Below, one piece after another: positions 22,721-39,734 of a stretch of 64,000 bases of DNA. Below the pieces are notes generated by a model. The model searched no databases, was not told the DNA's origin, and was given only the letters and a program-made list of their open reading frames with translations. The stretch is from contig JAQTOP010000008.1 of NCBI GenBank assembly GCA_028713285.1, forward strand, positions 1,572 through 65,571, written 5' to 3'. Source of the DNA: Terrimicrobiaceae bacterium (GTDB taxonomy: Bacteria; Verrucomicrobiota; Verrucomicrobiia; Chthoniobacterales; JAATET01). Within the stretch, counting starts at the first letter, position 1. Each line of letters begins with the position of its first letter. Made by a program: the position numbers and the translations under genes.

Positions 22721-23586
22721 TTCGCGGCGAAGCGCGCCAGCTCGTCGTCGGAATAGAAATGGCGCGCCGTTCGCGAAGCGTATTCGGACTCCAGCAAATT
22801 GGCGTCGAGCGTGAGCAAGTTGAGAAATTCTTCGTAGAGCATTGCGTAGGGCTTGTTATCCGAGTCGTTCGCGCGCCGGAGTTCGAGTTCCGCGGAGGGC
22901 GCGAATGCCGCCGCCCAGGGCGAGCCCGCCAGCCATTCACGCACTCCCGGAGCGAAGGCGGCGGCCAAATCTTCAAGGCGGAGCAGCAGGAGATGGACGC
23001 TTCCGTTTCGATGGATCTCGTATCCCCGCTCTCTCGCGAACGGACGGGCGAACACATCGATGCCGAATACCTGCTTCATTTCCTCATCGAACCATCCGTC
23101 GATAAACTCCCGCGGGTAGGTCCGTTGGAAGAGCGCCACGAGCTCGCGAGCCACGCGATGGATCCCATCCGGCGTCGCGCGCACGGGTCTCCTGCGCAGG
23201 AGTTCGAGGCACAGGTCGCGCGAATCCTGCGGAAGATGATGCACCCAGCCCCGGCGGAGGTTGTCGAAGAACGCCGAGACGTTGCGCCCGACGGGCTCGC
23301 GGACCAGCGAGAGAAGATACCAATCGGCCGCCGCGATGCCCTTTGCCAGACGTCCGCTCAGCTCGATGCTCGCAAGGAGATTCCATTGCGGCTGGAATCC
23401 GGGCCTGGCCTGCGAGCGGCCAATCCATTCGCGAATCGACGCCAGCACGGCCCGCTCGCTGAGCACGTGCGTCTGGAAAATCCTCTCCCGTGGCAAATGG
23501 CGCCGCAGGGTCTCGAGGACGCTGGTCGAGCCGACCTTGCCCACCTGGTGCACGCAGAGGATTGCGGGCTTCATCGCGGCGCTCAT
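22672..23586 (-). CDS. Putative PAPS-dependent sulfotransferase (divergent)
   Basis: LCVHQVGKVGSTSVLETL matches the hhhHxPKxGxTSh 5-prime-PSB pattern with P replaced by G. LVREPVGRNVSAFF matches the RxPxxRxxS 3-prime-PB pattern. ATGA overlap at 23583-23586. Confidence 0.65.
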   Translation of the reverse strand: MSAAMKPAILCVHQVGKVGSTSVLETLRRHLPRERIFQTHVLSERAVLASIREWIGRSQARPGFQPQWNLLASIELSGRLAKGIAAADWYLLSLVREPVGRNVSAFFDNLRRGWVHHLPQDSRDLCLELLRRRPVRATPDGIHRVARELVALFQRTYPREFIDGWFDEEMKQVFGIDVFARPFARERGYEIHRNGSVHLLLLRLEDLAAAFAPGVREWLAGSPWAAAFAPSAELELRRANDSDNKPYAMLYEEFLNLLTLDANLLESEYASRTARHFYSDDELARFAAKWLKSAPAPERALSFS

Positions 23587-26500
23587 TCGGCGCGGGGAAC
23601 CAATGCCATCCCGAACAGGCGAAACGCCGCGCGCTCAGGGGCGGCGGCCTGATGGTGGGCTCGCTGCCGGGGATAGAGCGTGATGCGCTGCGTGCCGACC
23701 GAGCCGAAGATGGGAATCTCCACGGTGCGGAGGTCGTTCGGGGAAAAGTTCAGCTCGAACTCGCCCAGAAAACGGGCGCCATTGCGAACGGACAAGGCCT
23801 GCTGCTTGAGCGGGCAGGTGTAGAGTATCAACAAATGGTAACGGCCGCCGCGTTCGACGGTGAGATCGAATTCCGCTTTCGGGCCGTAAACCCAGGAGCA
23901 CTTCATCGCCCTGCCGCGGCGGGTGGCGGGCTCGAACCGGTCGAAGCCGGATCCCCAGCGCACGAAACCCTGATGGACGCGCGCAACGGCCGGCTCGGCG
24001 GGCTTCGCGACCGGCAGCACGATCTTGCGTCCGAGCCTGCGGCCACGCCCGGCGAGGGCGTCGCCAAGTAGGCGGTGCAATTGGTTGAGCGTTTTCTCCG
24101 GAGCGAAGCGGTTCCTTGCGATCACCGGCGCGAGGCCGGAGAAGGAAGCCGCCGTCGCGGCATTGGACCAGATCTCCAGGATCGCTCCGGCGAGGCGTTG
24201 CGCGGAAATTTCATCCGCCACGATGCCGGTCCACCCATCGAGGACGGCTTCGGAAACTCCGCCGGTGCGAAAGCCGATCGATGGCGTGCCGCAGGCCGCG
24301 GCCTCGGTGAAGACCTGGCCAAACGTCTCGTCGCGACTCGGCCCGACATACACGTCGGAGGCGGAGTAGATGCGCGCGAGCGATTCCGGGTCGTTCACGT
24401 AGCCGAAGCAACGCAGATTCTCGCGCGGGAATTGCGCCGCACTCTCCTCGCGACCGAGGCAGCCGAGCAGCAGATTCGGGATGCCCGCGAGCTCGATGGC
24501 CTCGAGCAGCAAGTCCACGCCCTTGCGCGGATCGTCGAGGCGGCCGGCGGAGAACAGCACGAGGAACGCGTCTCCCGGGATGCCAAGCATTCGGCGGCAG
24601 GTGAGGCGATCCAATGGCTGGAGCGAACCGAGCGGCAGCGGGAGATTCACCACGGCGGCGCGCTGAGCGGCGCCCTGCCGGGCGAGATACGCATCCGCGA
24701 CATCCGCGACCGCGCGGCTGTTCGTGGCGATGCGCACCGGGGTCCCGCCGAAATGAAGCAGCCTCTTCGCCGCCCAGGCGGCGTGAATTTTCTCCGGGGC
24801 GAGCGCCGGGTATTCCGTGGGCGTTGGGCAGGCCGCGTCGCAGCCGGCCAGAAACTTTTCGCAGCCCTGCATGTAGGCGCACCGGCCCGTGATGAGCCAG
24901 TAGTCGTGCATGAAGAAAATCGCGGGACATCGCTCGGAAACGAGCGACACGACTTCCTCGCCGAGGTTCGCTCCGTGGAGATTGCCGAAGAACACCACGT
25001 CGGGGTCGCCCGCCAGGAGAACGTCCGCAAGCTGGATGGGCGACAACGGATCGGCCGGACGCAGGACGTCCTTCGCGCAGAGACAGGTAACGACATGCCC
25101 GCCGAGTTGCAGTGCTTCGACCAGTCGGCGGTGGCCGATTCCCGCGCCGAAGCGAAAGCCGTTGTCGTTGAAAAAAACGATCTTCAGCCGCCTCGTCTCC
25201 TCGACGGGCGATGGCTGCGGCACTGCCAGGCCATTCCCGGAGGCGAAGGCATCGCGCAGCCCGCGCAGCTCCGGCTCGTAGTTCTGCGTGAGGAAGGTTT
25301 TTTGCTCATCGTGCTTCCGGAAGAGCGCGATGGGCGCGCCGATCACCACAAGACGCGCTCCGGCCAATGCCATGCGCAGCCACAGCTCGTAATCCATGCT
25401 GAAGTGCAAATCCTCCCGCACGCGGCTGCCCGCGCGCTCCCAAATCCCGCGGGTGAAGAGCACCTCGGGCTGATAGAAAAACTGCCCGCGCAGCCAGCAA
25501 TCATCGAGGTTGAGCAAATCCTCCAGGGGCAGTAGGCCATCGCGGCAGCTCGTGAGATGCCGGCTTTCGACGCGGCCGTCCTGCCGGACCTCCGCGACGC
25601 CCGCGACCATGTCCGCGCCGCTGGTGACCAGGGCAACGACCGCGGCGGCGAGCGCGCCGGGAGCAAGCATGTCGTCGCTGTTCAACCAGGTGACGATCTC
25701 GCCGGTGGCCTGGCGGAATCCCTTGTTCAACGCGTCGCTCTGCCCCTTGTCCGGCTCGCTCACCCACGAGGCGAGATGCGCATCGTAGCGCTTCAGAATC
25801 GCAACGGTTCCGTCGGAACTTCCACCGTCGCAAATGATGTGCTCGATGTCCGGATAGTTCTGACGCAGGACGGAGAGGATATTCTCCTCGATGTAACGCC
25901 CCTGCTGAAAGGACGCGGTGATGACGGACACGCGCGGCCAGGGCTGGCCATCGGGCATCGCGGAAGGCAGGCAATCTGAAACGGGCGCACGGGGCCATGC
26001 CCGCAAATCCCCCTGCCCTCGAACGGCCTCGCGACGCGTTTCGCCCAGGATTTCCTCCACAGCGCGCCGCAATCCATCGTCTGTCCCGTCACCCGCGAAA
26101 GCTGCTGCCAGCAGCGATGCCGTTCGCGCAAAGGGTTCCGCCCCGAGTCCGGCGGGCCGCCGGCCATTCACCCGCGTGAGCTCGATCTCACCGCCATCCG
26201 ATCCGCGGAAATCCGTCGCGTCGGGCATCGCGGAGCCGTCCAGCCCGGCGATCCGCGTGCCGATAGCGCCATACTCCGCCGCCGCGCGCAGCGCCTTCTC
26301 CAGTCGATCACCGCGCGGCCTTTCCGCGAACCAGATCCAGGACGGACAAATCGGGACTTCGCGCAAGAAATCCTCAAGGGAAAGCGGCGCGACGACCGGC
26401 CGATTTTCGGCCTCGCCGACCTCCGCCAGCGCGGCGCGCGCCGCCGGAACGGAACCGGTCAGCACGTAAACCTCGCGCACACCCGCGGAGGCCAGCTCCC

Positions 26501-26600
26501 GCCAGACCGGCGAGATCGAGCCGGCGCCGGCCACAACGAGAATGGGACCGGACGATTCGCGCACGGAATGTGGCAGCCTTTCCAGATCGAGCGAAGTCAC
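23583..26600 (-). CDS. Giant multidomain glycosyltransferase: unknown N-terminal domain, GT2, GT1, and an unknown beta-rich C-terminal domain
   Basis: GT2: VSVITASFQQGRYIEENILSVLRQNYPDIEHIICDGGSSDGT...DKGQSDALNKG...WLNSDD. GT1: PSRDETFGQVFTEAAACGTPSIGFRTGGVSEAVLDGWTGI. I recognise no signature in the first ~230 aa or the last ~150 aa. Confidence 0.8.
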   Translation of the reverse strand: MTSLDLERLPHSVRESSGPILVVAGAGSISPVWRELASAGVREVYVLTGSVPAARAALAEVGEAENRPVVAPLSLEDFLREVPICPSWIWFAERPRGDRLEKALRAAAEYGAIGTRIAGLDGSAMPDATDFRGSDGGEIELTRVNGRRPAGLGAEPFARTASLLAAAFAGDGTDDGLRRAVEEILGETRREAVRGQGDLRAWPRAPVSDCLPSAMPDGQPWPRVSVITASFQQGRYIEENILSVLRQNYPDIEHIICDGGSSDGTVAILKRYDAHLASWVSEPDKGQSDALNKGFRQATGEIVTWLNSDDMLAPGALAAAVVALVTSGADMVAGVAEVRQDGRVESRHLTSCRDGLLPLEDLLNLDDCWLRGQFFYQPEVLFTRGIWERAGSRVREDLHFSMDYELWLRMALAGARLVVIGAPIALFRKHDEQKTFLTQNYEPELRGLRDAFASGNGLAVPQPSPVEETRRLKIVFFNDNGFRFGAGIGHRRLVEALQLGGHVVTCLCAKDVLRPADPLSPIQLADVLLAGDPDVVFFGNLHGANLGEEVVSLVSERCPAIFFMHDYWLITGRCAYMQGCEKFLAGCDAACPTPTEYPALAPEKIHAAWAAKRLLHFGGTPVRIATNSRAVADVADAYLARQGAAQRAAVVNLPLPLGSLQPLDRLTCRRMLGIPGDAFLVLFSAGRLDDPRKGVDLLLEAIELAGIPNLLLGCLGREESAAQFPRENLRCFGYVNDPESLARIYSASDVYVGPSRDETFGQVFTEAAACGTPSIGFRTGGVSEAVLDGWTGIVADEISAQRLAGAILEIWSNAATAASFSGLAPVIARNRFAPEKTLNQLHRLLGDALAGRGRRLGRKIVLPVAKPAEPAVARVHQGFVRWGSGFDRFEPATRRGRAMKCSWVYGPKAEFDLTVERGGRYHLLILYTCPLKQQALSVRNGARFLGEFELNFSPNDLRTVEIPIFGSVGTQRITLYPRQRAHHQAAAPERAAFRLFGMALVPRAE

Positions 26601-26970: not shown

Positions 26971-28662
26971 TCAGGCTTCCGCTCCCCGCGGCGAGGTTTT
27001 GACGAACAATCCGCTGCAGCCGGATGCGCCGATGAATCGGGCATGACCGGACTCCGCCCATTCGAGCGCGGCCTGTCTTACGCCGTAGCTGCCGTCGTCG
27101 TTTTCGGGATTCAAAAAATCGTGGAAGAGCACCGGCACCCCGGCGTCGAGCATGCGGGTGAGCATTTCGCAATCGGCCTTCACACCCTCGTAACGATGAT
27201 CGCCATCGACAAAGACCATCGTTGGCGAAATCGGATACGCGGCAAAAAACTCCTCGAGATTGCCCTGGAAGAGACGCGCATACGGCGTGAGTTTCCATGC
27301 GGCAAGCGTGTCGAACGTGCGCCGGATGGACTCGCTGCTGATATCCACGCCGTAGAAAAAAGTGCGGCCCTCGCGGGCGGGATTCGCCAGGGCGCCGAGG
27401 ATTTCGCAAACCGCCGAGCGGCCGCCGTAGGTGCCGATCTCGAGAACCAAGTCGCCGGAGTGATACGCGAGTTCGTATTGCTTGAACGAATCGCCGTCCA
27501 TCGCCCAGCCGGGCACGTCCTTCGTGCGGTCGAAAATCCCTTCATGCCCGGCGTCGATGAATGTCTGCTCGCGGCGATAGGAAGGGCGGAAAATGGCGCC
27601 GCCGCTCCTGCATTCATCCGGGTATTCGATCTCCGGGGCGGCGATTTTTCCGCCGGAAGCGCGGCCGCCATTCTTGCGAAAGAAGCAGCACGCCGTGACC
27701 TGCGGCCAGCTTCCGCCGGCGGAGGCTTCGGTGACGTAATCAAAATATGGCCTGGCGAACTGGTCGAGCTTCTCGATCAACGCCATCGGATACGACATGC
27801 AATATTGCAGATAGCTGCGGAAGAATTCGTAGAAATCGTATTTGCCGATGTGCCTGCCGGAATCCATCGACGCCTCCTGGAAGCTCTGGTTGACATAGAA
27901 CCGGCTGCTCATCCCCAGATCGGCGGCGACATTTGCAAGCTCCGCCAGATCGAAAAGGTGCTTGTCCTCCCACGTGGATTTGTCGAGGTCGCGCCGGTGA
28001 TAGCGCCCCATCGTTCTGGCGAATGCTTTCAACAGCCTGGCCTCCTCCGGCTCGAGCGATACTTTGGCGACCTTCGCAAGGCCGGGCAGCGTGTCGGCGA
28101 GCGCGCCCATGAGCAGATAGCCCTGGGCGCACGGTTCCTGCACGGCGAGGACTCCTCCCGGCAACAGGACGCGCGCGCATTCGCGCAGGAAGGCGGGAAC
28201 GTCGAGAATGTGATGCAGAGTCGAGCGCAGGGCGATCAGCGAGAAGGTATCCGCGGGCAATCGATCCAGCTCGTCGCCCAGCAAAACCCCGTAGCGAACC
28301 GGCGTCTTTGCATCCGCGCCGAGCGCCTCGATTTTTGACCGGGTAATCGCGAGGAATGCGGGCGACGGATCCGTGAGCAGAATCGCGGGATACCGGCTGG
28401 TTGCCGCAAGCCCCACGGACGCAAGGCCGGTTCCGCATCCGATCTCCAGAGCCGGGCCGGTATCCACGCCGCCGCATTCGATCGCCGCGGCAACGAGGCC
28501 GAAACCTGTCTCCAGGTCCCGCGGATTCACGCAATATTGCGTGTCGTATGCGCCCTCCTCGTGCGCGTAGGCGCGCGGCGACGAAATTGCCGCAAACCCG
28601 TCCGTCTGGGGCGTGGCATCCAGCCAGGCGCTGTAGGAATTCATTGTGTCACTCATCAGCAT
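26971..28662 (-). CDS. Dual-domain SAM-dependent methyltransferase (class I MTase plus Methyltransf_24/CmcI-like)
   Basis: N-terminal domain: ALEIGCGTGLASVGLAA ... LLPGGVLAVQEP. C-terminal domain: VLEIGTYGGRSAVCEILGAL ... VFVDGDHRYEGVKADCEML...VLFHDF. Confidence 0.75.
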   Translation of the reverse strand: MLMSDTMNSYSAWLDATPQTDGFAAISSPRAYAHEEGAYDTQYCVNPRDLETGFGLVAAAIECGGVDTGPALEIGCGTGLASVGLAATSRYPAILLTDPSPAFLAITRSKIEALGADAKTPVRYGVLLGDELDRLPADTFSLIALRSTLHHILDVPAFLRECARVLLPGGVLAVQEPCAQGYLLMGALADTLPGLAKVAKVSLEPEEARLLKAFARTMGRYHRRDLDKSTWEDKHLFDLAELANVAADLGMSSRFYVNQSFQEASMDSGRHIGKYDFYEFFRSYLQYCMSYPMALIEKLDQFARPYFDYVTEASAGGSWPQVTACCFFRKNGGRASGGKIAAPEIEYPDECRSGGAIFRPSYRREQTFIDAGHEGIFDRTKDVPGWAMDGDSFKQYELAYHSGDLVLEIGTYGGRSAVCEILGALANPAREGRTFFYGVDISSESIRRTFDTLAAWKLTPYARLFQGNLEEFFAAYPISPTMVFVDGDHRYEGVKADCEMLTRMLDAGVPVLFHDFLNPENDDGSYGVRQAALEWAESGHARFIGASGCSGLFVKTSPRGAEA

Positions 28663-29375
28663 AAAATCTCGTCGAGGATGAGATAAATTCCCTCCTCCGC
28701 TTCAATCCGGTCGATCCAGGCGCCCTGCTCGGGGCTGAGATGGCGCTGCCAGTCTCCCATCACGCCCTTTCGAAAAAAGCGCTTCTCCTCCGGCACGGCG
28801 GGACCGCTGAGCTTCGAAAACTGCGTGTTGCTGCGGGCGGTCTGAATGTCGCGCACCGTCAATTCTCTCCCGAGAAACCGTCCGAGCCGCAGCACCTCGT
28901 CTTCAAAACAGGTGTGCAGCTTTTGATAGGTCGTGAAAAAAATTGCATCCTCGACGCCCCGATTGTCCCAATACAAATGGTAGCGCGTCAACTGGCGGAC
29001 GAGGCTCTCGCCGCGCCGCTCGAAAAACTCCTCGATCGTGCCGTCGAACTGCCCAAGTCGCCGAAAATGGAAGTAAGCCGACACCACGACATCCTTCGGG
29101 TCGCGATAGACGTTGAGAACCTTCACCCCCGGCGTCGCCAGGAGCAGCGGGCGCACTTCGTCCTCGGGCTTGTAGTGCGACTTGATGAGGTAGTCGTTCG
29201 TCGCGATGCCGGCCGTGCGCAGGAAGTCACCCATCCGGGACGGCTCGATCGTATTGTTCTTCCATGCCTCGTTCTTGAACTCCGCCGGCACCTCGATGAA
29301 CGTCCCAATCTGCCGCACCACCAGGGTAAGCCAGGTCGAACCGCTTTTGAACGCTCCGTTGCTTACGATCAGCAT
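28656..29375 (-). CDS. PAPS-dependent sulfotransferase
   Basis: MLIVSNGAFKSGSTWL (5-prime-PSB) and VLNVYRDPKDVVVSAYFH (3-prime-PB). Confidence 0.85.
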   Translation of the reverse strand: MLIVSNGAFKSGSTWLTLVVRQIGTFIEVPAEFKNEAWKNNTIEPSRMGDFLRTAGIATNDYLIKSHYKPEDEVRPLLLATPGVKVLNVYRDPKDVVVSAYFHFRRLGQFDGTIEEFFERRGESLVRQLTRYHLYWDNRGVEDAIFFTTYQKLHTCFEDEVLRLGRFLGRELTVRDIQTARSNTQFSKLSGPAVPEEKRFFRKGVMGDWQRHLSPEQGAWIDRIEAEEGIYLILDEILC

Positions 29376-29394: not shown

Positions 29395-30267
29395 TCAGGC
29401 GCTCCAGCGTTCGATGACCAGCGGCATTGCGGCCCGAACCAGAACCAGACCGATGAGCAGCATCACGAGCATGAGCGCCATCACGCCAAAAAATTGGGGC
29501 AACACCGTCAAGGACTCGCCCGCCACCAATTGCCGGGTCGTCATGACCAGATAGCTCATCGGATTCAGCCGCGCGACCAGTGCGTAAACACCGCCGGGAG
29601 GAAGGTGCTTCGCCGCGAACACGGTCGGCGTCACGACGAGCCACCCCTTCTCGATGATGGGAATGGCGAGCGCGATATCCCGGTAAAGCAGTCCGATGGG
29701 CATGACCAAAAGTCCGACCGCCGTTCCGAATGCCGCCACGCCGATCAGGGCCGGTATCCCCATCAGCGTGGTCGGGGTAAACGGGAGACGAAACCAGAGG
29801 AAGGCGAAGAAGATCAGCACGATCTGCAAGGCCATGGTGATGCCAAGTTTCACCATACTGGAAAGAATGATCGCCTCGGGCGGCACGACCACCTTGGTCA
29901 GCACGCTGCGGTAGCTGCCGACGACCTGGAGCGGCCCGCTGACCGCCGTGGCGAAAACCTGCCAGATGGACACCCCGATCAGGATGTAGGCGCCGTTGGG
30001 AATCTTCGCCGTGCCGAAATTGACGAGGTCATTTTGTTGCGCGACCGTGAGGCCGACGGCGATCACGATCGGCGGCGCCAGAATCCAGAACAGCCCGAGC
30101 AGCGACTGCCGATACTGCGAACGCAAATCGCGGACCGCGAGAATGATCGCGAGCTGGCGGCTGCCGACAATGTCGCGCCACATCATTCGCAGCAGCTTCG
30201 ACGGGCGCAGCAGCGTGCTCTCCGCGCCGTATTCGTGGGTCTGCAGATGTCCGCTTTCCAGGCTCAT
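29395..30267 (-). CDS. wzm: ABC-2 type polysaccharide export permease (Wzm/TagG/KpsM class)
   Basis: ILAVRDLRSQYRQSLLGLFWILAPPI is the hallmark N-terminal ABC-2 motif. About 6 TM helices, 290 aa. Confidence 0.85.
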   Translation of the reverse strand: MSLESGHLQTHEYGAESTLLRPSKLLRMMWRDIVGSRQLAIILAVRDLRSQYRQSLLGLFWILAPPIVIAVGLTVAQQNDLVNFGTAKIPNGAYILIGVSIWQVFATAVSGPLQVVGSYRSVLTKVVVPPEAIILSSMVKLGITMALQIVLIFFAFLWFRLPFTPTTLMGIPALIGVAAFGTAVGLLVMPIGLLYRDIALAIPIIEKGWLVVTPTVFAAKHLPPGGVYALVARLNPMSYLVMTTRQLVAGESLTVLPQFFGVMALMLVMLLIGLVLVRAAMPLVIERWSA

Positions 30268-30321: not shown

Positions 30322-31782
30322 TCAATGCGACCTCGCGCGGCCGCCCCTTCCGAGCCGCCGAAGCATTTCGTCGCGCAATCTGACCCGCATGGGCGTGGAT
30401 TTTTCCCGCCAAAGCTCCTCGGCAAGCGACTCGGCGCGGTGCGTCGCCTCCGCGACCTTTTCCTTGAGCCGCAGCCGATCCTCGCCGGCCTTCTCACGCG
30501 CCAGCCGCGCGCGCTCGGTCCATTGCTCCCTCAGTGCGTCCAGTCGCCGCCGCAGATATTCGTTCTGCGTCTGCAGGTGATCCAGGTGCAGGAGCGGGTG
30601 CTTCCTGATCTCGTCTTCGGGATCATAACCCGACCAGCCTGCGCGGACGCCTGCGGAGCGACGGCGACATTCGATCGCTTCGCGACAGATCTCGATCAGG
30701 CTGTAGGCCCAGCGCTTCCCCCGTTCCCGCTCGAGCTGGAGACTGGCCCGTTCGGCCTCCACGCCCGACCAGCCACCGCACGACCAGTCAATCTCCTGCA
30801 GGTGCCCTGCCAGGGGACCGGCGTCGTAGCATGGGAAGAAAAACGCTCCCGGCGCCTGCTCGCGATTGGACTCTATATCCGAACAAGCCACGCGCTTGCC
30901 GAGGGCGAGGGAATCCTCGATCGTCGTGTTCCATCCCTCGAATCGCGAGGGTTGCACGACCTCGATCGCGCAGCGCATCAGCGCGATGAGGTCCGGCAGC
31001 GGCACCTCGCCCAGCACGCTGATATTCTGAAAGAGCTTTTCCACCGAAAGCCTTCCGAACAATTCCGAGATGTGGGAATTACGCGGATCGCGCGTGTCGT
31101 TCGGGACTCCGACCATCACGACATGCACATCGGGTCGCAACCGCCGGGCGAGTGCGACCGCCTCGACAACCAGCCGATGGTTCTTGTGCTTCCAGAACTG
31201 ATTCGCAACGAGGACAAACGCCCGCGGCAAACCGTATTTGCCGGAGACGAACCGCGGATCGCCTTCCGTCATGCCGCGGGCGTAGGCGAAACTCGACGGA
31301 AAATGCGCGCAGCCGCTCGCCCCTGCATATGATGGATACAATGCCCGGAAATCGGCGAGTACGGCTTCGCTCGAAAACATCATCGCGTCGCAGTTGTCCA
31401 CCAGATATCCGAAGTAGCGGTCGCGCTGCGAGAGTTCCTCGTCGCTGAAATACTCCGGCAGGTGGCGATGCTGGAAATCCGGTATCCAGCCGACCAGCGC
31501 GCAGGCCGTCTGCGGAAGCAGCGCCTCGGTGACCGGGAGCAGCACGTCGAGCCCATGCGCCTCCACCGCCTCCTGGATGTGCGTCAGCGAAACGACATCG
31601 GCGTCGAAGCGAATCGCCTTCGCTCCCGCCGGCAATTCCGCAAGCGAACTTGTGCGTCCGCCAAGGACATGCACCTCGCAATCCGCAATCGACGCGTTCG
31701 CGAGCGCATGGACCATGCTGCGCGTGTAGCTCGCGCCCGCAGTCCAGTTCGCCTGCGTCCGGTCGAGGAAACCGATCTTCAT
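30322..31782 (-). CDS. Glycosyltransferase family 1 with a C-terminal coiled-coil extension of about 90 aa
   Basis: GT1 core: VVQPSRFEGWNTTIEDSLALGKRVACSDI. Tail (nt 30322-30600): HLDHLQTQNEYLRRRLDALREQWTERARLAREKAGEDRLRLKEKVAEATHRAESLAEELWRE. ATGA overlap at 31779-31782. Confidence 0.75.
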   Translation of the reverse strand: MKIGFLDRTQANWTAGASYTRSMVHALANASIADCEVHVLGGRTSSLAELPAGAKAIRFDADVVSLTHIQEAVEAHGLDVLLPVTEALLPQTACALVGWIPDFQHRHLPEYFSDEELSQRDRYFGYLVDNCDAMMFSSEAVLADFRALYPSYAGASGCAHFPSSFAYARGMTEGDPRFVSGKYGLPRAFVLVANQFWKHKNHRLVVEAVALARRLRPDVHVVMVGVPNDTRDPRNSHISELFGRLSVEKLFQNISVLGEVPLPDLIALMRCAIEVVQPSRFEGWNTTIEDSLALGKRVACSDIESNREQAPGAFFFPCYDAGPLAGHLQEIDWSCGGWSGVEAERASLQLERERGKRWAYSLIEICREAIECRRRSAGVRAGWSGYDPEDEIRKHPLLHLDHLQTQNEYLRRRLDALREQWTERARLAREKAGEDRLRLKEKVAEATHRAESLAEELWREKSTPMRVRLRDEMLRRLGRGGRARSH

Positions 31783-32663
31783 CCCACGCGAATGCCGAAT
31801 GCCACGCCGTAGCCCAGGCTGGCATACTCGTGGGTGCGAATCGGGAACGGGGCCTCGGAGATCGCCTGCCGCCAGATCGCCCGCAGGTTCGGATGCTGCG
31901 GATGGCTGATGTCGTCGAAGATGACCACGCCGCCCACATCGAGTCGCGGCAGCACGTCGCGCAAATCCTGCAACGCGCCTTCGTCGCTGTGGTCACCATC
32001 CACCGTCACCATCGAAAGCTTCCGCTCCGGCTGTCCGGCGAAGAACTTCGGCAGCGTCACATGGCTGTCGCCATCGACAAATTCCGCCGTTCCCGAGTGG
32101 CCGATCCTGCGCAACTCGGAGCGGACAAAATCCGGTCCCGGGTTTTCCATTCCGGCGTAATCCGCCATCCACATGTCGAAACCGAACAGCGCGCATTTTC
32201 GCGCGGCGGCCGCAGCCGTGGCCATGCTGCGGCCCCGGCGCACGCCGATCTCCAGATAGCTCACGGGCTGCAAAAGCAAGGCTGCCGCCGCAACGACATC
32301 GACGATGTCCAGGTAGTGCCAGCATTCGCCGAATTTGCGCTCTCCCTCCCGGCGGAACTCGGAAATATACCGCGAATAGGCGTCGGGGGTGAGCCGCGCA
32401 AACATCCGCCGCACGAATCGGCGGCATGCGCCCGAGTGGGCAAATGCCACGATGGTTTCCGGATCCACGAGCACCGGATTATACCACCCCCCAAGGGCCT
32501 CATGCCTGGTGAATACCCCGCGATTGGTCGTCATCGAACAGGAGTGGTCGGCCGGAATTCCGGGCCACTGGCAATGCTGGAATTCCGGATTCCCGGACAG
32601 ATCGAATCGCGTCCGCCGCTGACGGACGTGGCGACAGATAAACGGTTGCAAATACCGCCGCAT
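31779..32663 (-). CDS. Class I SAM-dependent methyltransferase (Methyltransf_24-like)
   Basis: YLEIGVRRGRSMATAAAAA ... VTVDGDHSDEGALQDLRDVLPRLDVGGVVIFDDI. The start is uncertain: 32663 or ATG 32534. Confidence 0.65.
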   Translation of the reverse strand: MRRYLQPFICRHVRQRRTRFDLSGNPEFQHCQWPGIPADHSCSMTTNRGVFTRHEALGGWYNPVLVDPETIVAFAHSGACRRFVRRMFARLTPDAYSRYISEFRREGERKFGECWHYLDIVDVVAAAALLLQPVSYLEIGVRRGRSMATAAAAARKCALFGFDMWMADYAGMENPGPDFVRSELRRIGHSGTAEFVDGDSHVTLPKFFAGQPERKLSMVTVDGDHSDEGALQDLRDVLPRLDVGGVVIFDDISHPQHPNLRAIWRQAISEAPFPIRTHEYASLGYGVAFGIRVG

Positions 32664-32695: not shown

Positions 32696-32929
32696 TTATC
32701 CGGCCGTCGTCTTGCTTCCGATCACATCGATAAACTGCCGGAGACTTAGAGTTTCCAGCGTCTCCTCATCGCTAAATCTGATCCCAAACTCCTCCTCCAG
32801 GGCCAGGATCAGATTCATTTGCCTCAGGGAATCCCACTCTTCAATCGTTTCCGAGCTTGAGTCGTCTCCAATTTGCGATTCCTCGATTCCGAAGACCGAG
32901 GCCATCACCCGCTTAATTCTGGTTTCCAT
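32696..32929 (-). CDS. Acyl carrier protein
   Basis: 77 aa with IEEWDSLRQMNLILALEEEFGI. The DSL serine is in the usual helix-2 context of phosphopantetheine attachment. Confidence 0.8.
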   Translation of the reverse strand: METRIKRVMASVFGIEESQIGDDSSSETIEEWDSLRQMNLILALEEEFGIRFSDEETLETLSLRQFIDVIGSKTTAG

Positions 32930-34667
32930 ATCGAATGCTTATGTAATGTAAATTCCTGGGTTGATAGACGTCCAATTCCAACCGGTAATTCCTGACTGTC
33001 TGCGTGGATTCCATGGTCTGAAATCCGACCCTCTCATAAAAATCGATCACCTGGTTGTTTTTTTGCGTCTGAATGTAGGTTGCCTCGACGGCTTCGATTC
33101 CCGCGTCTTTCATAAAGGGAATCAGAAAATCGAAGAAGGCCAATTCGATATTACGTCCAATCGTCCGGCAACTCATCAACAGCGTATCGATCGTTGCACT
33201 CCCTGCATCCACCCCGCGACAAACGATGCACAATCCCACCAGTCCATATCCGCCAAACTTATCAGCCACGGAAAAGGAGACTACTGAGTCGGACCGGCTG
33301 TCGATGAAGTTCCGAATGTCCGCTTCGGTGTATCGTTTGGTCGTGAGATTGAATTGGTTTGTCTTCTGCGTCAGTTGGGCAAGGCGCGGCGCGTCCCTGA
33401 TCTCGTCAATGGCAATTGAAACACCCAACTGCAGCGAGGCGAGATATTCCTCGACGTTTTGAAACGCCGAAATTCCCGCCTTGCGTTCGATTTCGCGCTG
33501 ATACATCGCCCCTCGTTCGGCATCCTCCTTCGAGAGGACACCGGAATAAAAGAGCCGCGAAGTCTTCCTCAGCAGTTCAGGATAATCATGCAGACTTTCA
33601 GGAACCCGGACGGCCAGCACCTCCGGCATACCGCTCCGGACCCGCTCAATCTCAAAATCCGAATCATCAATAAACACCAGGCTGTTCAGTCCGATATTCA
33701 AGTCCCGGGCGATCGCCGCAAGATTGGATGCTTTGTCTTCCCAATTGATCCTTTTAATTGCAATCGAGGCATCGCGCAGGCAGGCATCGGGGTGATTCTC
33801 GATGACATGATTCACATCATCGAGGTTATTCTTGCTGCACAACCCGATCAAAACTCCCTTCCGGCTCAACTCGACCGCGATTTGCTGGATTTCTTCGAAT
33901 ATCGCGCCGGCTTTTGACCTCGCGGACATTTCGATGCCGTCAAACCCGTCTTCTCCGAGCACCCCCTTCCAGAGTGTATTATCGCAGTCGAAGATAAGCG
34001 CCTTCCTGGCTTTCCCCGCCACCGATTGGATGATCGCGCCGCAATAGTCCGCATAAGCTCTAAAGAATTCAATCGAGTACAGGGATTTCGAAGAATAAAA
34101 AAATCTGAAATCCACCGCTTTCGATACGGACATCGACGCAAGGATCTTTTCGACATCGACGAGGAAAAGATTGCTGCATGCGTCTTCCTTCGCCGTCAGG
34201 TGGGCATTGAGCTCTTCGCAAATTCGATCGAAGTTATTCCTTCCAATGACATGGTGATTGAATGCCATGCTCGAGAATTGATTGAAGAAAACAAGCGACG
34301 TCCTTGAGAGATTGTTAAGAACAAAGTCAATTTCCGCTTTAACCGCGGAGACCAGGTCCTGAATCTCGACAGCCTCCATTACATTTGCCCTCGCTTGCAG
34401 CAAAGGTCTAATGTTGCAAGCCTCCCAAAATACGATGACCAAATCCGCTTCTCGAAACTTTAGAGAATCCTGCGGGATGTTGTCGTAGTCACCCGAAGAA
34501 ACTCTGGCGTGGATTCCCGCCCGTCGAAGCGGATGCTCGAAAATAGCGTTCAGCTGAGCAACAACGATATTTGACAACACGGCAATTGTGTACGCCGGCG
34601 TGCCTTCCATGCTCTTCCCAAGCAGGGCATTCTCACGCAGAATTTCGCTATAACTCAATCCAGCCAT
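32913..34667 (-). CDS. FkbH-like HAD-IIIC phosphatase/transferase with a C-terminal GNAT-like domain
   Basis: KALIFDCDNTLWKGVLGEDG (HAD motif I, typical of FkbH), LVFIDDSDFE, and a C-terminal FGGYGLVGLCIV...RTIGRNIELAFFDFL...FYERVGFQ. Confidence 0.85.
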   Translation of the reverse strand: MAGLSYSEILRENALLGKSMEGTPAYTIAVLSNIVVAQLNAIFEHPLRRAGIHARVSSGDYDNIPQDSLKFREADLVIVFWEACNIRPLLQARANVMEAVEIQDLVSAVKAEIDFVLNNLSRTSLVFFNQFSSMAFNHHVIGRNNFDRICEELNAHLTAKEDACSNLFLVDVEKILASMSVSKAVDFRFFYSSKSLYSIEFFRAYADYCGAIIQSVAGKARKALIFDCDNTLWKGVLGEDGFDGIEMSARSKAGAIFEEIQQIAVELSRKGVLIGLCSKNNLDDVNHVIENHPDACLRDASIAIKRINWEDKASNLAAIARDLNIGLNSLVFIDDSDFEIERVRSGMPEVLAVRVPESLHDYPELLRKTSRLFYSGVLSKEDAERGAMYQREIERKAGISAFQNVEEYLASLQLGVSIAIDEIRDAPRLAQLTQKTNQFNLTTKRYTEADIRNFIDSRSDSVVSFSVADKFGGYGLVGLCIVCRGVDAGSATIDTLLMSCRTIGRNIELAFFDFLIPFMKDAGIEAVEATYIQTQKNNQVIDFYERVGFQTMESTQTVRNYRLELDVYQPRNLHYISIRYGNQN

Positions 34668-34694
34668 TTATCAATTGCACCCAACAATTCGGGG

Positions 34695-35612
34695 TCACCA
34701 GATGTCGTTCCGTCGCTTTTGCAACACCAAGGCCATGGACCGGGGCAAAAAGCGAAAGTCGGACGGATAGGAACCCGGCGATGCCGAGTAGGTGGATACG
34801 ACGCGAAAGCCGGCGTCTTCCGCCAGTTTGATGATTTCCGATTCGCGTTTGAATTCCGTGATGTGGTCAATTTCAGCGGCGGTTAGCGCCCCCGTTACGA
34901 AAGCATATCCGCCGGGGTTAAGATTGCCGGCGAGGCTCGAAAACAGCAAATCCGGCCGCTCGACATGCTCGAGAAGAAAACAGGAGATCGCAGCGTCGTA
35001 TTGCCCCGCCCCTGTGAACGCCAGCGCGTCCCCGACTATGTAGTTGGTGCGATCCGAGAATCCGATCCTGCGCGTCATGTCAATCGCAAGCTCGACAGAT
35101 TTTTGGCTAATATCCACGCCATCAAGGGTCCATTGCTGCATCCCGTGCAAAAGCAGCAGACCCCAAACGCCCGAACCCGAGCCGAGTTCCAGCAAGGTTC
35201 CTCCCTCATCCGGGAGCACGGGCAGGAAATAGTCCTTGAAAAAGCCGGCGATTTTCAAGTGGTGTTCCCACGCGAAAGTCGTTGTAAAGACTCCCCAGTG
35301 GTAGTTTTGCATGTGATCGGCATTGTTATAAACGCTCTGGTAAACTTCCGCGTAGGTCTTGTTTTTGTATGCACCCCGTTTTTCGTATTCCATCTGCGAC
35401 TTGCCCACATCCAGAACGAAGCTGTTGTATCCGTTGATCAGGACAGACGCGAATTCTTCCGATCCAAGATAATCCGCCGCCCAGCCGACCATAAGGTCGC
35501 CCAGCTCGTCGAACAGGGCCGCGTTCCTTTCGCGATTGGCGAGGACCTTCGGCCCAAAGAGCCGGTTCTTTGCAAACTCCGCGAGGAATATTTTCAGGTT
35601 GGTTGAGATCAT
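34695..35612 (-). CDS. Class I SAM-dependent methyltransferase
   Basis: TLLELGSGSGVWGLLLL (motif I), GVDISQKSVELA, YDAAISCFLLEHV, LNPGGYAFV. Confidence 0.75.
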   Translation of the reverse strand: MISTNLKIFLAEFAKNRLFGPKVLANRERNAALFDELGDLMVGWAADYLGSEEFASVLINGYNSFVLDVGKSQMEYEKRGAYKNKTYAEVYQSVYNNADHMQNYHWGVFTTTFAWEHHLKIAGFFKDYFLPVLPDEGGTLLELGSGSGVWGLLLLHGMQQWTLDGVDISQKSVELAIDMTRRIGFSDRTNYIVGDALAFTGAGQYDAAISCFLLEHVERPDLLFSSLAGNLNPGGYAFVTGALTAAEIDHITEFKRESEIIKLAEDAGFRVVSTYSASPGSYPSDFRFLPRSMALVLQKRRNDIW

Positions 35613-35695
35613 GACTCTTCGTTGGTATTAATGACTGTTTGCCAATCCTTGGGTGGAAAATACCGATGCCCGCAATAGTCGGCAGGCCGACCGGT

Positions 35696-36364
35696 TCATT
35701 CAGAGGGAAGCTTTCCCATCACTCTTGCAGGATTGCCCATGAGGATTGAAAAAGGCGGCGCATCGCTCATCACCACACTTCCCGTGGACACGATGGAGCC
35801 CTTTCCGATGCGCACGCCCCTTAGGATGCTGGAATTGGCATAGATTGCCGCGTAATCTTCGATCACAATGGGCGCGGTTGGGATGTCGCCCTTTTCCGTG
35901 GGATGACCGGTGGCAAATATTCGTTTAACGCCTTCCGCCCGGGTTATGTAGTGCGTTTCGTGAGCAAAGTCGATGATGTTCACATTGTGGGCAACACCGA
36001 CGCAATCGCCCATGACGATACTGTCCCCTGACCAGACCCGGGTGCCTTCGCCGATGTAACATCCCTCACCGATCTCTATTTTCCCACCGTAAGCAAAGAC
36101 GGTGAGCTCGCCCCGAATATGGGTGTTTTTGCCAACACGAACAGACGCTGGATTTTGCTGCAAATTGACGACCCTGGCGGATTCATAGAACCGGGCCGAA
36201 TCGGCGACGCTCGCCCCTTTGTAACACCTGCCAGCCTTCACTTGATCGAGTTGAGCTTCGATGAATTCAAAATCGATCAGATTTGCATCGACCAACTTCA
36301 GAAGGAGTCGCGTCGCCCGCCTCTTCAGCATGCGTTTGATGTTTTCCATCTTTCTTCTGAACAA
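35696..36364 (-). CDS. Hexapeptide-repeat (left-handed beta-helix) acyl/acetyltransferase
   Basis: VGKNTHIRGELTVFAYGGKIEIGEGCYIGEGTRVWSGDSIVMGDCVGVAHNVNII ... IEDYAAIYANSSILRGVRIGKGSIVSTGSVV shows the hexapeptide periodicity. Confidence 0.85.
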   Translation of the reverse strand: MFRRKMENIKRMLKRRATRLLLKLVDANLIDFEFIEAQLDQVKAGRCYKGASVADSARFYESARVVNLQQNPASVRVGKNTHIRGELTVFAYGGKIEIGEGCYIGEGTRVWSGDSIVMGDCVGVAHNVNIIDFAHETHYITRAEGVKRIFATGHPTEKGDIPTAPIVIEDYAAIYANSSILRGVRIGKGSIVSTGSVVMSDAPPFSILMGNPARVMGKLPSE

Positions 36365-36430
36365 AGTATCGTTAACTTGCAGGCAGCCTTTTCCGCCTTG
36401 CTTTGGAAGGCCCGGTCTCGCGGTCTGTGT

Positions 36431-37324
36431 TCATATTCGTTGTTCAAGCGCAGGCTCGCCGGCCTGTGCAGGTTCCAAGGGCTTCATCGCAAAGAACGAA
36501 AAGATCTCATATCCCTCGCTGCGGGCACGAACCGCGCCGGCGTCGTGCCGGACGCCCTCCACGAAGGGCGCAGGGTAGGTGTTGATGACCGAATCGGGCG
36601 GCGCCAGCACTTTTCTCAGGGTCAACTCCGCGTTGACGAACGCGAGGAGGTATTCGTCGAGATAGTAGCAATTCTCGTCCTTCGTGATGAAGTTCAGCGG
36701 GTGTTTGGCGAAAAAATCCGCGCGCTGGCTCTCGTTCCAGATCACCACGTCCCGCAGGCAGCAAACCACCCCGCCCGGCTTCAAAATCGTCCGGATTTGC
36801 CGAAGGAATTCCACGAGGGAATGAATATGGTGCAGCACCTCGCGGATATAGACCACGTCGAAGGAATTGGGCTCGATGTCGAGCTTCTCGCCGGAGTGAA
36901 AGCGAAAGTTGACCTTCACGCCGTCGAGGCCGTTCAACTTCTTTGCCGCGCCGAGGCCGGCAAGCAGCCCGGCTGAGGAATCCATGCCCGTGACGTTGAA
37001 TCCCTCTCGAGCGAAGGCGTAACTCGCCACGCCGTTGCCACAGCCAAAATCGAGCACCTTGCTGGATGGAGAGGGGGCGACGCCCAGCGCCGCGAGCATG
37101 GCAAGCAGCGCGCGAAATTCGTCGCTCGCATGGAACCGCCTGGCATTGTCGGGAAAGTCCGGCGTCTTGTAGCAGAGGCGGAGCAGCTCGCGCATGCCGC
37201 CCTCCTCCCATGCCCACAAGTAGGCGCGATCATAGGCATCGTTTTTGTCGATCGCGATCCGGCGGGAGAAAGCGGTGGAGGCCATCTGAAAAAGTCTTTC
37301 GATCATCACGCTAAAGAGACGCAC
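36431..37324 (-). CDS. Class I SAM-dependent methyltransferase
   Basis: KVLDFGCGNGVASYAFAREGFNVTGMD ... FDVVYIREVLHHI ... LKPGGVV. Confidence 0.75.
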   Translation of the reverse strand: MRLFSVMIERLFQMASTAFSRRIAIDKNDAYDRAYLWAWEEGGMRELLRLCYKTPDFPDNARRFHASDEFRALLAMLAALGVAPSPSSKVLDFGCGNGVASYAFAREGFNVTGMDSSAGLLAGLGAAKKLNGLDGVKVNFRFHSGEKLDIEPNSFDVVYIREVLHHIHSLVEFLRQIRTILKPGGVVCCLRDVVIWNESQRADFFAKHPLNFITKDENCYYLDEYLLAFVNAELTLRKVLAPPDSVINTYPAPFVEGVRHDAGAVRARSEGYEIFSFFAMKPLEPAQAGEPALEQRI

Positions 37325-37369: not shown

Positions 37370-38767
37370 CTAATCGGTCTCCATGAGGTCGTCGGCGGCT
37401 TCGACGGTGTTCAGGATTTTTTCGGTATGCAGCCGGGCGCCATCATGCGCAACAACGCTCCACGTCCTGCGCTGATAATACTCGCCGGCATTCCATGGAT
37501 CGTCGCACGAGACGAGGAACTGTGCGCTTCGGCGCGCCGCGATGGTGACGCGGATGGGGCGGGAGAATTTGAGGTGGACCTGATAGACACCCTCCCGCAA
37601 ACCGACGCATGCGAGGTCGATGCGCACTTCGTATTCTCCGGGCTGGACCCTGGACAGGCTTCCGCCATCCCGGCGGGAAAGCATCTTCAGCACCTGTCTT
37701 GGTTTCTCATCCAGCTTCATCGCCTCGAGGGAGGGATGGCGATACACAATCGCTGTAAAGTTTAGCTGCTCGATGGGCTGCTTCACCTGGAACCGCGCGA
37801 CGATCACCGCATCCTCACCCGGCTTCACCGGCCCGCCGGTCGCGGACTGCATGTCCACTCCAAGAATTTCCGCCTCATCGGAGGCTTGCTGATCGCCGTC
37901 CTCCGTCTGGTTGACCATCGCCGCCCGATCGCCCTTTTGATCCTCGATCAGGTGACGTTCGTATTGCTGAATCACCGATCCAATGGGCCCGAAGTCCACG
38001 ACTTCTCCGCGGCGCAAATACAACGCGGTTTCCGCAATCGAGAGCAGGATGCTCGGGGAGTGATGCACCATGACGAGGGACATGCCGCTGGAGCGCATTT
38101 CGAAGAGCCGCTCGAGGCACTTCCTGCGAAAATTCATGTCGCCGACGGCCAGCACCTCGTCGAGCAGAAGGATGTCGGGCTGGGTGCTGATGGCGCAGGC
38201 AAAACCCAGCCGCGCCACCATCCCCGAGCTGTAGGTTTGCACCGGCGCATCGATCGCGTAGCCGATCTCCGAGAATGCCACCACGTCGTCGAAGCGGTCC
38301 TTGATCTCCTGGTAGGTCAGCCCGAGGACCGACATGTTCGCGAAGACGTTCTCGCGGCCGGTCAGCACGGGATTGAACCCAGCGCCCAGCGCGAGCAACG
38401 GCGCCAGGCGGCCCCGCACGGTCACCCGCCCGGTGGTGGGCTTGATGAGCCCCGCGACGATGCGCATGAGCGTCGTCTTTCCGCAGCCGTTGATCCCGAC
38501 GATGCCCACCGCGTCACCCGAGCGCAGTTCGAAGTTCACATCCTGCACCGCCCAGAATTCATTTTTGCGCAGGACACCGGCGCGTTGCGAGAGTCCGACG
38601 ACTTCGCGCCCGATGTCCTGGACGCCGTAGAAAAGCGATCGCTTCAAGTCGCGGCAAAAGCGCTTCGAGACATTCTCGAGCGCCAGCACGACGTGCTTCC
38701 CGGAATTGCCATCGGCAGGCGCCGCAGTTTCGGAGGCCGCAGGGTTGATCAGTTCAGATACGTTCAT
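37370..38767 (-). CDS. wzt: Polysaccharide ABC exporter ATP-binding protein with a C-terminal extension of about 200 aa (Wzt-type)
   Basis: Walker A GINGCGKTTL, signature YSSGMVARLGFA, Walker B LLLDEVLAVGD. About 200 aa of beta-rich sequence follow the NBD (ILGVDMQSATGGPVKPGEDAVIVARFQVKQ...YEVRIDLACVGLREGVYQVHLKF). Confidence 0.9.
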   Translation of the reverse strand: MNVSELINPAASETAAPADGNSGKHVVLALENVSKRFCRDLKRSLFYGVQDIGREVVGLSQRAGVLRKNEFWAVQDVNFELRSGDAVGIVGINGCGKTTLMRIVAGLIKPTTGRVTVRGRLAPLLALGAGFNPVLTGRENVFANMSVLGLTYQEIKDRFDDVVAFSEIGYAIDAPVQTYSSGMVARLGFACAISTQPDILLLDEVLAVGDMNFRRKCLERLFEMRSSGMSLVMVHHSPSILLSIAETALYLRRGEVVDFGPIGSVIQQYERHLIEDQKGDRAAMVNQTEDGDQQASDEAEILGVDMQSATGGPVKPGEDAVIVARFQVKQPIEQLNFTAIVYRHPSLEAMKLDEKPRQVLKMLSRRDGGSLSRVQPGEYEVRIDLACVGLREGVYQVHLKFSRPIRVTIAARRSAQFLVSCDDPWNAGEYYQRRTWSVVAHDGARLHTEKILNTVEAADDLMETD

Positions 38768-39734
38768 TGGCAGAAACCATCGTCAATCGTTCGGTCCTCG
38801 CGCCGGGCCGGTCTGCGGTATCCCATGCGGCAACGCACGCCGCCAGCGACTTCGCGAAGGGCCGGGGTTGCCATCCGGGCAAAAGACGCCGCAGCTCCGC
38901 GACGTCCGCCTGCCAGTGCGCGGGATTCCCACGCAGCATCTCGCGTCCGAATACGATCTTCGCCGGGACATCCGCGCAGTCCCGCACGGCTTCGGCGACG
39001 TCACGCACGGCGACACTCGCACCCGACGCCATGTTCACGGCGCGAAAACCGGGCAGCCGTCCGGCGGTCATCGCCTTCACCACGCCGATTGTGGCAGCCG
39101 CCGCTTCGTCCTCCGCGAGAAAATCCCGCCGCTCATCGCCCGTTCCCTTCAATCGCAACTCCGGCATCCCGGCCCGCAATTGGTCGAAGATCTCCCACAC
39201 GAGCAATCGGCGCTGGCGGGGACCGAAGACCGAGAAAAATCGCAACGAGACGATGGACAGACCGAAGCAGCAGGCAAACTCGACGCCCATCTGTTCCGAG
39301 AGCAGCTTGTGAAATCCGTAAGGGGACTCGGGCTGGCACGCCGCGGCCTCCGATATCGGAAGCTCCACCGGCGAGCCATACACCGCGGCGCTGGATGCGA
39401 GCGCGACCATGGGCCGCCGCCCGGAACGCCGGATCGCCTCCAGCACGCGAAACCACAAGCTCGCGGAAGCTTCGAAATCCTGGAGCGGCGCCGCGAACGA
39501 CTCGCCGACCGAGGCGGCGCCGGCAAAGTGCAGCACGCAGTCCGGATCCTCTTCGCGCATCACGGCCGCCAGCGTGTCGGGCGAGGAAAAATCCACGGAG
39601 CGATAGTCGCCGGGCCAGGCCGGCGGCGGAGTTGCCGCGCGGCCGATCGCGACGACTTCGCATCCCGCGTCGGACGCCGCGCGACCGACCGCGCCGCCGA
39701 GGAAGCCGGAAGCGCCTGTGATCACGCATTTCAT
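38754..39734 (-). CDS. NAD-dependent epimerase/dehydratase (extended SDR)
   Basis: MKCVITGASGFLGGAVGR (GxxGxxG), SPYGFHKLLSE (YxxxK). ATG at 39734 in an ATGA overlap with the nadE stop. The rest of the 798-aa track ORF is an artefact overlapping nadE. Confidence 0.85.
   Translation of the reverse strand: MKCVITGASGFLGGAVGRAASDAGCEVVAIGRAATPPPAWPGDYRSVDFSSPDTLAAVMREEDPDCVLHFAGAASVGESFAAPLQDFEASASLWFRVLEAIRRSGRRPMVALASSAAVYGSPVELPISEAAACQPESPYGFHKLLSEQMGVEFACCFGLSIVSLRFFSVFGPRQRRLLVWEIFDQLRAGMPELRLKGTGDERRDFLAEDEAAAATIGVVKAMTAGRLPGFRAVNMASGASVAVRDVAEAVRDCADVPAKIVFGREMLRGNPAHWQADVAELRRLLPGWQPRPFAKSLAACVAAWDTADRPGARTERLTMVSANERI

Follow-up and report, generated by a model that had tools for sequence, protein, structure and literature searches.

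A gene encoding a Wzt-type ATPase with a divergent C-terminal carbohydrate-binding domain (CBD) lies at positions 37370..38767 of a 64,000-nucleotide stretch (the window) of contig JAQTOP010000008.1, from a Terrimicrobiaceae bacterium of the Verrucomicrobiota. Like every other feature given coordinates below, the gene is on the minus strand. We assign a probability of roughly 0.7 to the reading that this protein belongs to a type-V ATP-binding cassette (ABC) exporter and that, by homology, export depends on a cap carried by the glycan chain. The type of nucleotide-binding domain (NBD), a gate helix, a Wzm partner, and both the fold and the homology of the CBD were established in this analysis.

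The wzt gene encodes 465 amino acids, with its stop codon at 37370-37372 and a GC content by codon position of 0.65/0.41/0.79, which is coding-like for a GC-rich genome. Because more than 7,900 homologs scored in a homology search, it is not a chance open reading frame. The same protein is deposited in GenBank as MDD5198758.1, annotated as a "polysaccharide ABC transporter ATP-binding protein" in a metagenome-assembled genome (MAG) of Terrimicrobiaceae, Verrucomicrobiota. ABC_tran (PF00005) matched with an E value of 1e-20, and a motif scan placed Walker A at residues 91-98, the signature YSSGM at 179-183, Walker B at 199-204, the D-loop at 207-210, and the H-loop, the last of the catalytic motifs, at H236. 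Motif scan, Pfam, and PDB matches together define the NBD as residues 26-261 (37985..38692), in agreement with a preliminary description of this DNA in which the NBD motifs ended near residue 250. The closest solved NBD relatives in a PDB sequence search were TarH (6jbh; E 4e-54), Aquifex aeolicus Wzt (1.5e-51; 3e-51 for 8dku), and TagH (2e-49), and the top NCBIfam models were TagH and galactan Wzt, both under their equivalog cutoffs.

An AlphaFold2 (AF2) model of full-length Wzt, built from a 77-sequence alignment, had a predicted local distance difference test (pLDDT) score of 87.7 and a predicted template modeling score (pTM) of 0.80. After a disordered segment (residues 1-20), the model contains a strand at 26-38, a helix at 41-56, and a strand at 70-82. 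A cytosolic gate helix characterizes WzmWzt and TarGH transporters (PMC6379404). In the model, helix 41-56 (38600..38647), which sits between the first and second NBD strands, corresponds to this element, and K35, R39, K42, and Y47 in and around it are near-invariant, being conserved in at least 90% of the 77 homologs. The junction between NBD and CBD is a hinge helix and linker spanning residues 262-295 (37883..37984; AF2 helix 262-291), which a profile alignment matched to the A. aeolicus hinge helix region. The preliminary description had noted a beta-rich extension of about 200 amino acids at nucleotides 37370-38000, equivalent to residues 257-465, and the AF2 model bears this out with a beta-sandwich following the hinge helix.

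The transporter partner is encoded in the same locus. A 290-amino-acid protein with six hydrophobic segments (29395..30267) matched Mycobacterium abscessus Wzm (9qfx_A; E 4e-10), TarG (5e-5), and A. aeolicus Wzm (5e-3) in the PDB, as well as the NCBIfam galactan Wzm/RfbD model (3.8e-13, under its cutoff). By these similarities, this multi-pass protein is the Wzm partner of Wzt, a type-V ABC-2 permease. Pfam ABC2_membrane matched no gene in the window, and Wzm went unmatched even at an E value of 0.1, making it a second transporter component in the locus that escapes the standard Pfam model. With its NBD motifs, its gate helix, and a Wzm in the same locus, the window protein is a Wzt/TagH-type (type V) exporter ATPase.

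The C-terminal domain was harder to place by standard models. A search of this region against Wzt_C (PF14524), the check that the preliminary description had proposed, fell under the gathering threshold of 30.4 bits, reaching 16.0 bits (E 0.013) with the full protein and 18.0 bits (E 0.003) with the isolated domain. Among the 16 closest homologs, 8 C termini matched Wzt_C at E < 1, with a best E value of 1.2e-6. More sensitive comparisons used a 77-sequence full-length family profile (A1), a clade profile of the 16 closest C termini (A2), and a profile of 18 C termini from more distant homologs (A3). A2 aligned with A3 by hhalign at 99.4% probability (E 5e-21, 143 columns); all 18 members of A3 matched PF14524 directly (best E 6e-13), and A3 also matched the sequence of the A. 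aeolicus CBD crystal structure (E 1.5e-5). In addition, A1 aligned with A. aeolicus Wzt (8dku_A) in a single unbroken alignment through NBD, hinge helix, and CBD (E 3e-84), pairing positions 64-406 with residues 32-358; an NBD-only chain scored E 3e-78. When residues 280-465 served as the query of an exhaustive single-sequence phmmer search against 1.84 billion representative proteins, only 8 clusters were recovered, a yield that reflects the sequence divergence of the CBD and not the absence of a family. One of the phmmer matches, an 897-amino-acid protein (P0124), contains three separate CBD-like stretches and may carry tandem Wzt-CBD-like domains.

Predicted structure placed the domain in the same family. 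In the AF2 model, at least nine strands fall within residues 299-419, followed by a terminal strand at about 430-446 and a final helix at 454-464. The best PDB structural matches to the full-length model were full-length A. aeolicus Wzt chains (7k2t/8dku), aligned over about 430 columns at an E value near 1e-32, and NBD-only PDB structures matched at about 1e-24. Residues 296-465 modeled alone gave a pLDDT of 81.9. With this CBD model, the top Foldseek matches were the Klebsiella pneumoniae O12 CBD structures 5HNO/5HNP (E 1e-5, template modeling [TM] score 0.57-0.60, root mean square deviation [rmsd] 2.1 Å over 135 columns), followed by A. aeolicus 8DKY/6O14 (TM 0.57-0.69) and Escherichia coli O9a 2R5O (E 7.6e-5, TM 0.50-0.54). 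The preliminary description had named the O9a domain as the structure to compare, and it was thus among the best PDB matches. In Foldseek the rmsd was high over full-length alignments and 2.1-2.4 Å over 135-138 columns, a pattern compatible with a swapped C-terminal strand in a putative CBD homodimer.

Because profile-profile homology, the continuous alignment to A. aeolicus Wzt, and the fold matches agree, the C-terminal 170 or so residues can be assigned, from profiles and models, to the Wzt CBD family as a sequence-divergent member. Foldseek, hhalign, and conservation delimit the beta-sandwich itself, of divergent Wzt_C type, to residues 296-436 (37460..37882). The extension had been described at the outset as a Wzt-type carbohydrate-binding module, and both fold and homology favor that description. 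Every structural hallmark of a CBD-containing Wzt that was tested was found, the curated Pfam threshold being the exception. The same three lines of evidence indicate that concluding "no CBD" from PF14524 alone would be wrong.

Of central importance to the function of this domain is what related CBDs bind. All three CBDs characterized so far recognize terminal caps, and CBDs are essential for the export of capped O antigens (PMC9445017). In the A. aeolicus CBD dimer, a methylated terminal sugar is bound in a pocket made of beta-strands and a "trap loop," and the domain cooperates with the NBD hinge helix and is displaced on ATP binding (PMC9445017). By homology, we infer cap binding, and the coupling of chain termination to export, for the window Wzt. 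The complex would be a type-V ABC exporter of the Wzm/Wzt kind, and the undecaprenyl-linked polysaccharide that it carries would most likely resemble an O antigen. The CBD would be expected to dimerize, to dock on the hinge and H-loop helices of the NBD, and, once a chain is complete, to bind a chemical feature of its non-reducing end. Only terminated chains would then be loaded into the Wzm channel, and ATP binding would release the CBD from the glycan. Such a capped-chain mechanism is the best reading of the locus, reasonable by homology given the published role of CBDs (PMC9445017).

Several observations weigh against this mechanism. The window Wzt stayed below the Wzt_C gathering threshold, as given above, and the clade profile A2 found no Wzt CBD among PDB sequences; its match there to a flavohemoprotein (E 0.07) was spurious. 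CBD Foldseek E values were modest (1e-5), and the Ig-like sandwiches of NPC2 and RhoGDI appeared at similar E values (about 4e-5 to 1e-4), with lower TM scores (0.44-0.50). In the window Wzt the cap-pocket residues of A. aeolicus are replaced by others, as expected if the ligand differs. The wzm gene is not adjacent to wzt and lies 7.1 kb away in the window; the two are directly adjacent in one related locus (L010). Finally, Pfam and PDB sequence searches of the window proteins found no WbdD- or WbbB-like terminator.

Some of these points could be read to mean that the domain is a generic Ig-like or ML-type sandwich that binds a lipid, such as the polyprenyl carrier, or acts only in dimerization or regulation. 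NPC2 binds sterols and RhoGDI binds prenyl groups, their Foldseek E values are close to those of the Wzt CBDs, and the Wzt_C match is subthreshold. Such a role is nonetheless very improbable: TM scores were highest for the Wzt CBDs (0.54-0.69 versus 0.44-0.50), the profile homology to PF14524-positive domains was strong, and the domain follows the hinge helix exactly as the A. aeolicus CBD does and aligns with it in one stretch. An ML/RhoGDI-like lipid-binding domain was rejected on the basis of the lower TM scores and the strong Wzt_C profile homology.

A second alternative accepts the domain as a true Wzt-CBD homolog and gives it another task, either reading repeats (sulfated or methylated units, for instance) or internal features of the glycan or simply holding the polymer or partner enzymes close to the channel, with chain length set by other means. 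In its favor, the searches turned up no WbdD- or WbbB-like terminator bearing a coiled-coil ruler; the two sulfotransferases of the locus, together with its six or more methyltransferase genes, suggest extensive decoration along the chain and not a single cap; and a conserved acidic tail (described below) could be a protein-docking element. Against this, the characterized CBDs all bind terminal caps (PMC9445017), and divergence within the clade is much faster in the CBD than in the NBD, as expected of a substrate-specificity domain. We consider a CBD of this kind unlikely.

For a cap-dependent Wzt, sequence variation within the family offers clues to the ligand. The closest clade comprises sequences 1-17 of the alignment, from Chthoniobacterales MAGs and soil/rhizosphere metagenomes, and its features were contrasted with those of 51 PF14524-type homologs. 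Identity to the window Wzt within the clade is 43-63% over the CBD versus 78-89% over the NBD, consistent with the pattern expected of a specificity module. Residues G377, Y395, and F417 are conserved family-wide, as is an invariant terminal-strand motif, Y/F-Q432-x-R434-x-W436 (also written Y/F-Q-P/R-R-x-W). Specific to the clade are a conserved 8- to 10-amino-acid insertion at residues 345-356, predicted as a short helix in the NBD-docking loop; an invariant S364-R-R-D-G-G-S370 motif with one extra Gly relative to PF14524-type homologs; and conserved K/R400, R403, P404, R406, and R412.

The clade also carries an acidic C-terminal tail of 29 amino acids (residues 437-465; 37373..37459), delimited by conservation and the AF2 model, that extends past the usual end of a Wzt CBD. 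It is found in 17/17 close homologs and is absent or unrelated in the 51 PF14524-type homologs. Within it, G443 and T448 are invariant and K450, A458, D459, and D460 near-invariant. Its mean net charge is -4.5, compared with about 0 for the CBD core, and it is predicted as short strands plus the helix at 454-464 at low pLDDT (52-74).

Mapping the clade-specific residues onto the A. aeolicus pocket through the confident part of the A1-based alignment placed many of the basic ones at or beside pocket positions. The pocket positions L300, T346, A348, and H350 correspond to V341, H398, K400, and S402; N313 aligns to L363, directly before the SRR motif; and P404-T408 is the aligned counterpart of the trap loop (352-356). 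R365, R366, K/R400, R403, R406, and R412 therefore fall at or beside the beta4, beta6, trap-loop, and beta7 positions of the methyl pocket, and where Aquifex has a hydrophobic methyl pocket, the clade appears to have a conserved cationic cluster instead. The NBD-docking residue Arg302 of A. aeolicus, which begins the docking loop Arg302-Asp308, aligns to R343. Because of this correspondence and the nearly neutral CBD core, some of the basic residues may serve NBD docking and not ligand binding.

Related loci were used to ask which enzymes travel with the transporter. The flank BipA-SUI1-M10 peptidase-NadE-epimerase-wzt is syntenic in relatives, with NadE-epimerase-wzt present in L001-L005 and the epimerase-wzt pair in all close relatives. 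What follows wzt is hypervariable: nonulosonic acid genes (NeuB, a CMP-sugar synthetase, and a polysialyltransferase-like gene) in L001, L002, and L005; a methyltransferase/fatty acid desaturase set in L004 and the P0010 locus; a 561-amino-acid hexapeptide protein in L003; and no cassette in L010, in which wzt, wzm, and a sulfotransferase gene are contiguous. Different cassettes at one position look like serotype-style cassette exchange. In the window this position is occupied by a low-GC cassette (32913..37324), delimited by composition and Pfam, that lies between wzt and the wzm block. The 32- to 37.3-kb segment has a GC content of 52-59%, compared with 63-67% elsewhere.

In contrast to the hypervariable cassette, the core of wzt, wzm, and a sulfotransferase gene is constant in Chthoniobacterales relatives. 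Immediately downstream of wzm in the window is a 239-amino-acid sulfotransferase (28656..29375; PF00685, E 8e-26) of the 3'-phosphoadenosine-5'-phosphosulfate (PAPS) type, which resembles cytosolic PAPS-dependent enzymes (PDB SULT family, E 1e-12). By tblastn, this gene lies directly 3' of wzm at 60-83% identity in 7/7 wzm loci (the window, L001, L003, and L007-L010), and no other modifying enzyme in relatives shows an invariant link to the transporter. The sulfotransferase is more conserved than the Wzt CBD. A Methyltransf_24/TylF-like O-methyltransferase (MT24; 31779..32663; PF13578, E 1e-17) is beside wzm in the window, L001, L008, and L009, and not in L003, L007, or L010; in L010, however, a TylF-type gene is found upstream of wzt. 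TylF/MT24-type O-methyltransferases are thus frequent in these loci and not universal. In the sister-clade locus L011 a sulfotransferase of another family was found, and none was found within 10 kb of one more distant wzt locus and one cyanobacterial wzt locus.

A search of genome contigs with a single Wzm sequence gave no match, a three-sequence Wzm profile recovered only one contig, already known, and a metagenome scan for Wzm yielded 4 loci. A 290-amino-acid gene in L004 was considered as a Wzm, and alignment showed no relation.

These patterns bear on which enzyme would make the cap. The preliminary description had credited one of the methyl-, sulfo-, or acyltransferases of the locus, a proposal that can now be narrowed: the sulfotransferase alone is invariantly linked to wzm, MT24/TylF enzymes are not universal, and FkbH is strain-specific. 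The sulfotransferase that follows wzm is the best-linked candidate for the cap enzyme, and the MT24/TylF-like methyltransferase is an alternative candidate. In E. coli O9a, wbdD lies after wzm-wzt, a position to which that of the sulfotransferase can be likened. As a tentative proposal, a sulfate ester added by this enzyme would form the cap and be read by an Arg/Lys-rich CBD pocket. A sulfate determinant is reasonable because of the constant wzt-wzm-sulfotransferase core and the clade-invariant cationic substitutions at the predicted pocket. The presence of a sulfotransferase from another family in the sister clade, and its absence from the two loci outside Chthoniobacterales, point in the same direction. 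In a sulfate-cap system, the acidic tail might work as an intramolecular mimic, or it might be a docking element.

Other findings temper this proposal. The pocket residues were mapped by sequence alignment alone, with R343 equivalent to the docking residue Arg302; the CBD core has a net charge close to 0; O-methyltransferases of the TylF/MT24 type are frequent in these loci as well; and the sulfotransferase could decorate internal residues. Cap chemistries described so far are methyl, phosphate/methyl-phosphate, and beta-Kdo (PMC9445017). Equally possible are an O-methyl cap, the commonest known chemistry, in a locus where methyltransferases are abundant; a terminal residue supplied by the variable cassette and tracked by fast CBD evolution; and sulfation of internal residues only. 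A glyceryl cap, raised in the preliminary description and here linked to FkbH, was downgraded to the least supported option, because the FkbH gene is strain-specific whereas the distinctive CBD residues are clade-wide. The cassette that holds it is low in GC and strain-specific, and tblastn found no FkbH homolog in the ten related loci L001-L010. The window FkbH cassette was apparently acquired horizontally by this strain. Literature searches on sulfated O-antigen caps and on FkbH in polysaccharide loci gave nothing usable.

Among known systems, A. aeolicus WzmWzt (7K2T, 8DKU, 8DKY, and 6O14) likewise combines gate helix, NBD, hinge helix, linker, and C-terminal beta-sandwich, with 3-O-methyl-Man/Rha (mannose/rhamnose) as its cap (PMC9445017). 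Relative to it, the window Wzt shares about 11-12% CBD identity, adds the docking-loop insertion of 8 to 10 amino acids and the 29-amino-acid acidic tail, has conserved arginines near the pocket positions, and is encoded apart from wzm. The CBD of Klebsiella pneumoniae O12/Raoultella terrigena (5HNO and 5HNP), the top Foldseek match, recognizes an anionic beta-Kdo cap, which may bear on the Arg-rich motif of the window domain; identity is 11-13%, and the window has no recognizable Kdo-transferase terminator of the WbbB/GT99-like kind. The E. coli O9a Wzt domain (2R5O; methyl-phosphate cap, WbdD) has the same fold, and in both systems a modifying enzyme lies beside the transporter genes. For O9a, a CBD provided in trans is reported to restore function to a CBD deletion (cited in PMC9445017). 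No WbdD-like kinase-methyltransferase was detected in the window, and its transporter-adjacent enzyme is a sulfotransferase. PF14524 proteins from cyanobacteria and other organisms have G377, Y395, F417, and the terminal-strand motif in common with the window clade. Unlike them, the clade has the 345-356 insertion, the extra Gly of SRRDGGS, the acidic tail, and basic residues at 365, 400, 403, 406, and 412, and it scores below the Pfam threshold.

In architecture and inferred mechanism, the window protein is that of known CBD-containing Wzt transporters, and its sequence was already deposited under a generic annotation. It would extend the CBD-dependent ("capped-chain") branch of Wzm/Wzt export to Verrucomicrobiota, a phylum in which the system is unstudied. 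A sizeable Wzt CBD subfamily escapes the Pfam model, so that surveys based on PF14524 would undercount cap-dependent systems. The constant wzt-wzm-sulfotransferase core beside a hypervariable, apparently horizontally exchanged cassette is a compact, testable system that could address sulfate as a termination and export signal and the evolution of CBD specificity. A sulfate export signal, if real, would add a variant to the capped-chain mechanism, with a cap type outside those described (PMC9445017). If the cap proves to be an ordinary O-methyl group, the result would be a routine annotation.

The remaining genes fit a large glycan locus that runs on the minus strand, with one exception, from about 41.7 kb to below 1 kb. 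In order, it contains NadE, an epimerase, wzt, a methyltransferase, a hexapeptide acyltransferase, a methyltransferase, FkbH, MT24, a GT1 glycosyltransferase, wzm, the sulfotransferase, a dual methyltransferase, a 1005-amino-acid GT2-GT1 protein, an NKWYS protein, and a 1059-amino-acid GT4 protein, beyond which are many glycosyltransferases, a second sulfotransferase, and an FkbM-type methyltransferase. The epimerase, an NAD-dependent sugar epimerase/dehydratase directly upstream of wzt (38754..39722; PF01370, E 2e-37), has a stop that overlaps the wzt start by 14 nucleotides (38754-38767), which suggests translational coupling. According to Pfam, the cassette encodes a methyltransferase (36431-37324), a hexapeptide acyltransferase (35696-36364), and a second methyltransferase (34695-35612). 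Its last member, a 584-amino-acid FkbH-domain protein (32913-34667), matched TIGR01686 above cutoff (E 5.5e-78, 262 bits) and has a HAD-IIIC phosphatase core with a faint GNAT-like C terminus.

Downstream of the sulfotransferase, the dual methyltransferase (26971-28662) was considered as a WbdD-like terminator and set aside, its similarity being limited to generic class-I methyltransferases. The following region (19541-26600) encodes two very large multidomain glycosyltransferases flanking the NKWYS-family (PF10364) protein. The 1005-amino-acid enzyme joins GT2 and GT1 domains, and the 1059-amino-acid enzyme, which L003 and L010 share at 63-73% identity, has a GT4 domain and about 470 unassigned N-terminal residues. 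These two proteins are candidates for the polymerase. Farther along, a 787-amino-acid protein (12985-15348) has some 12 or more hydrophobic segments; neither Pfam nor NCBIfam matched it, and it may be a GT-C-like or ligase-like membrane enzyme. The second sulfotransferase (Sulfotransfer_3/1) and the FkbM-type methyltransferase (1797-2612 and 9405-10364) lie in the distal part of the locus, together indicating that the predicted product would be heavily sulfated and methylated.

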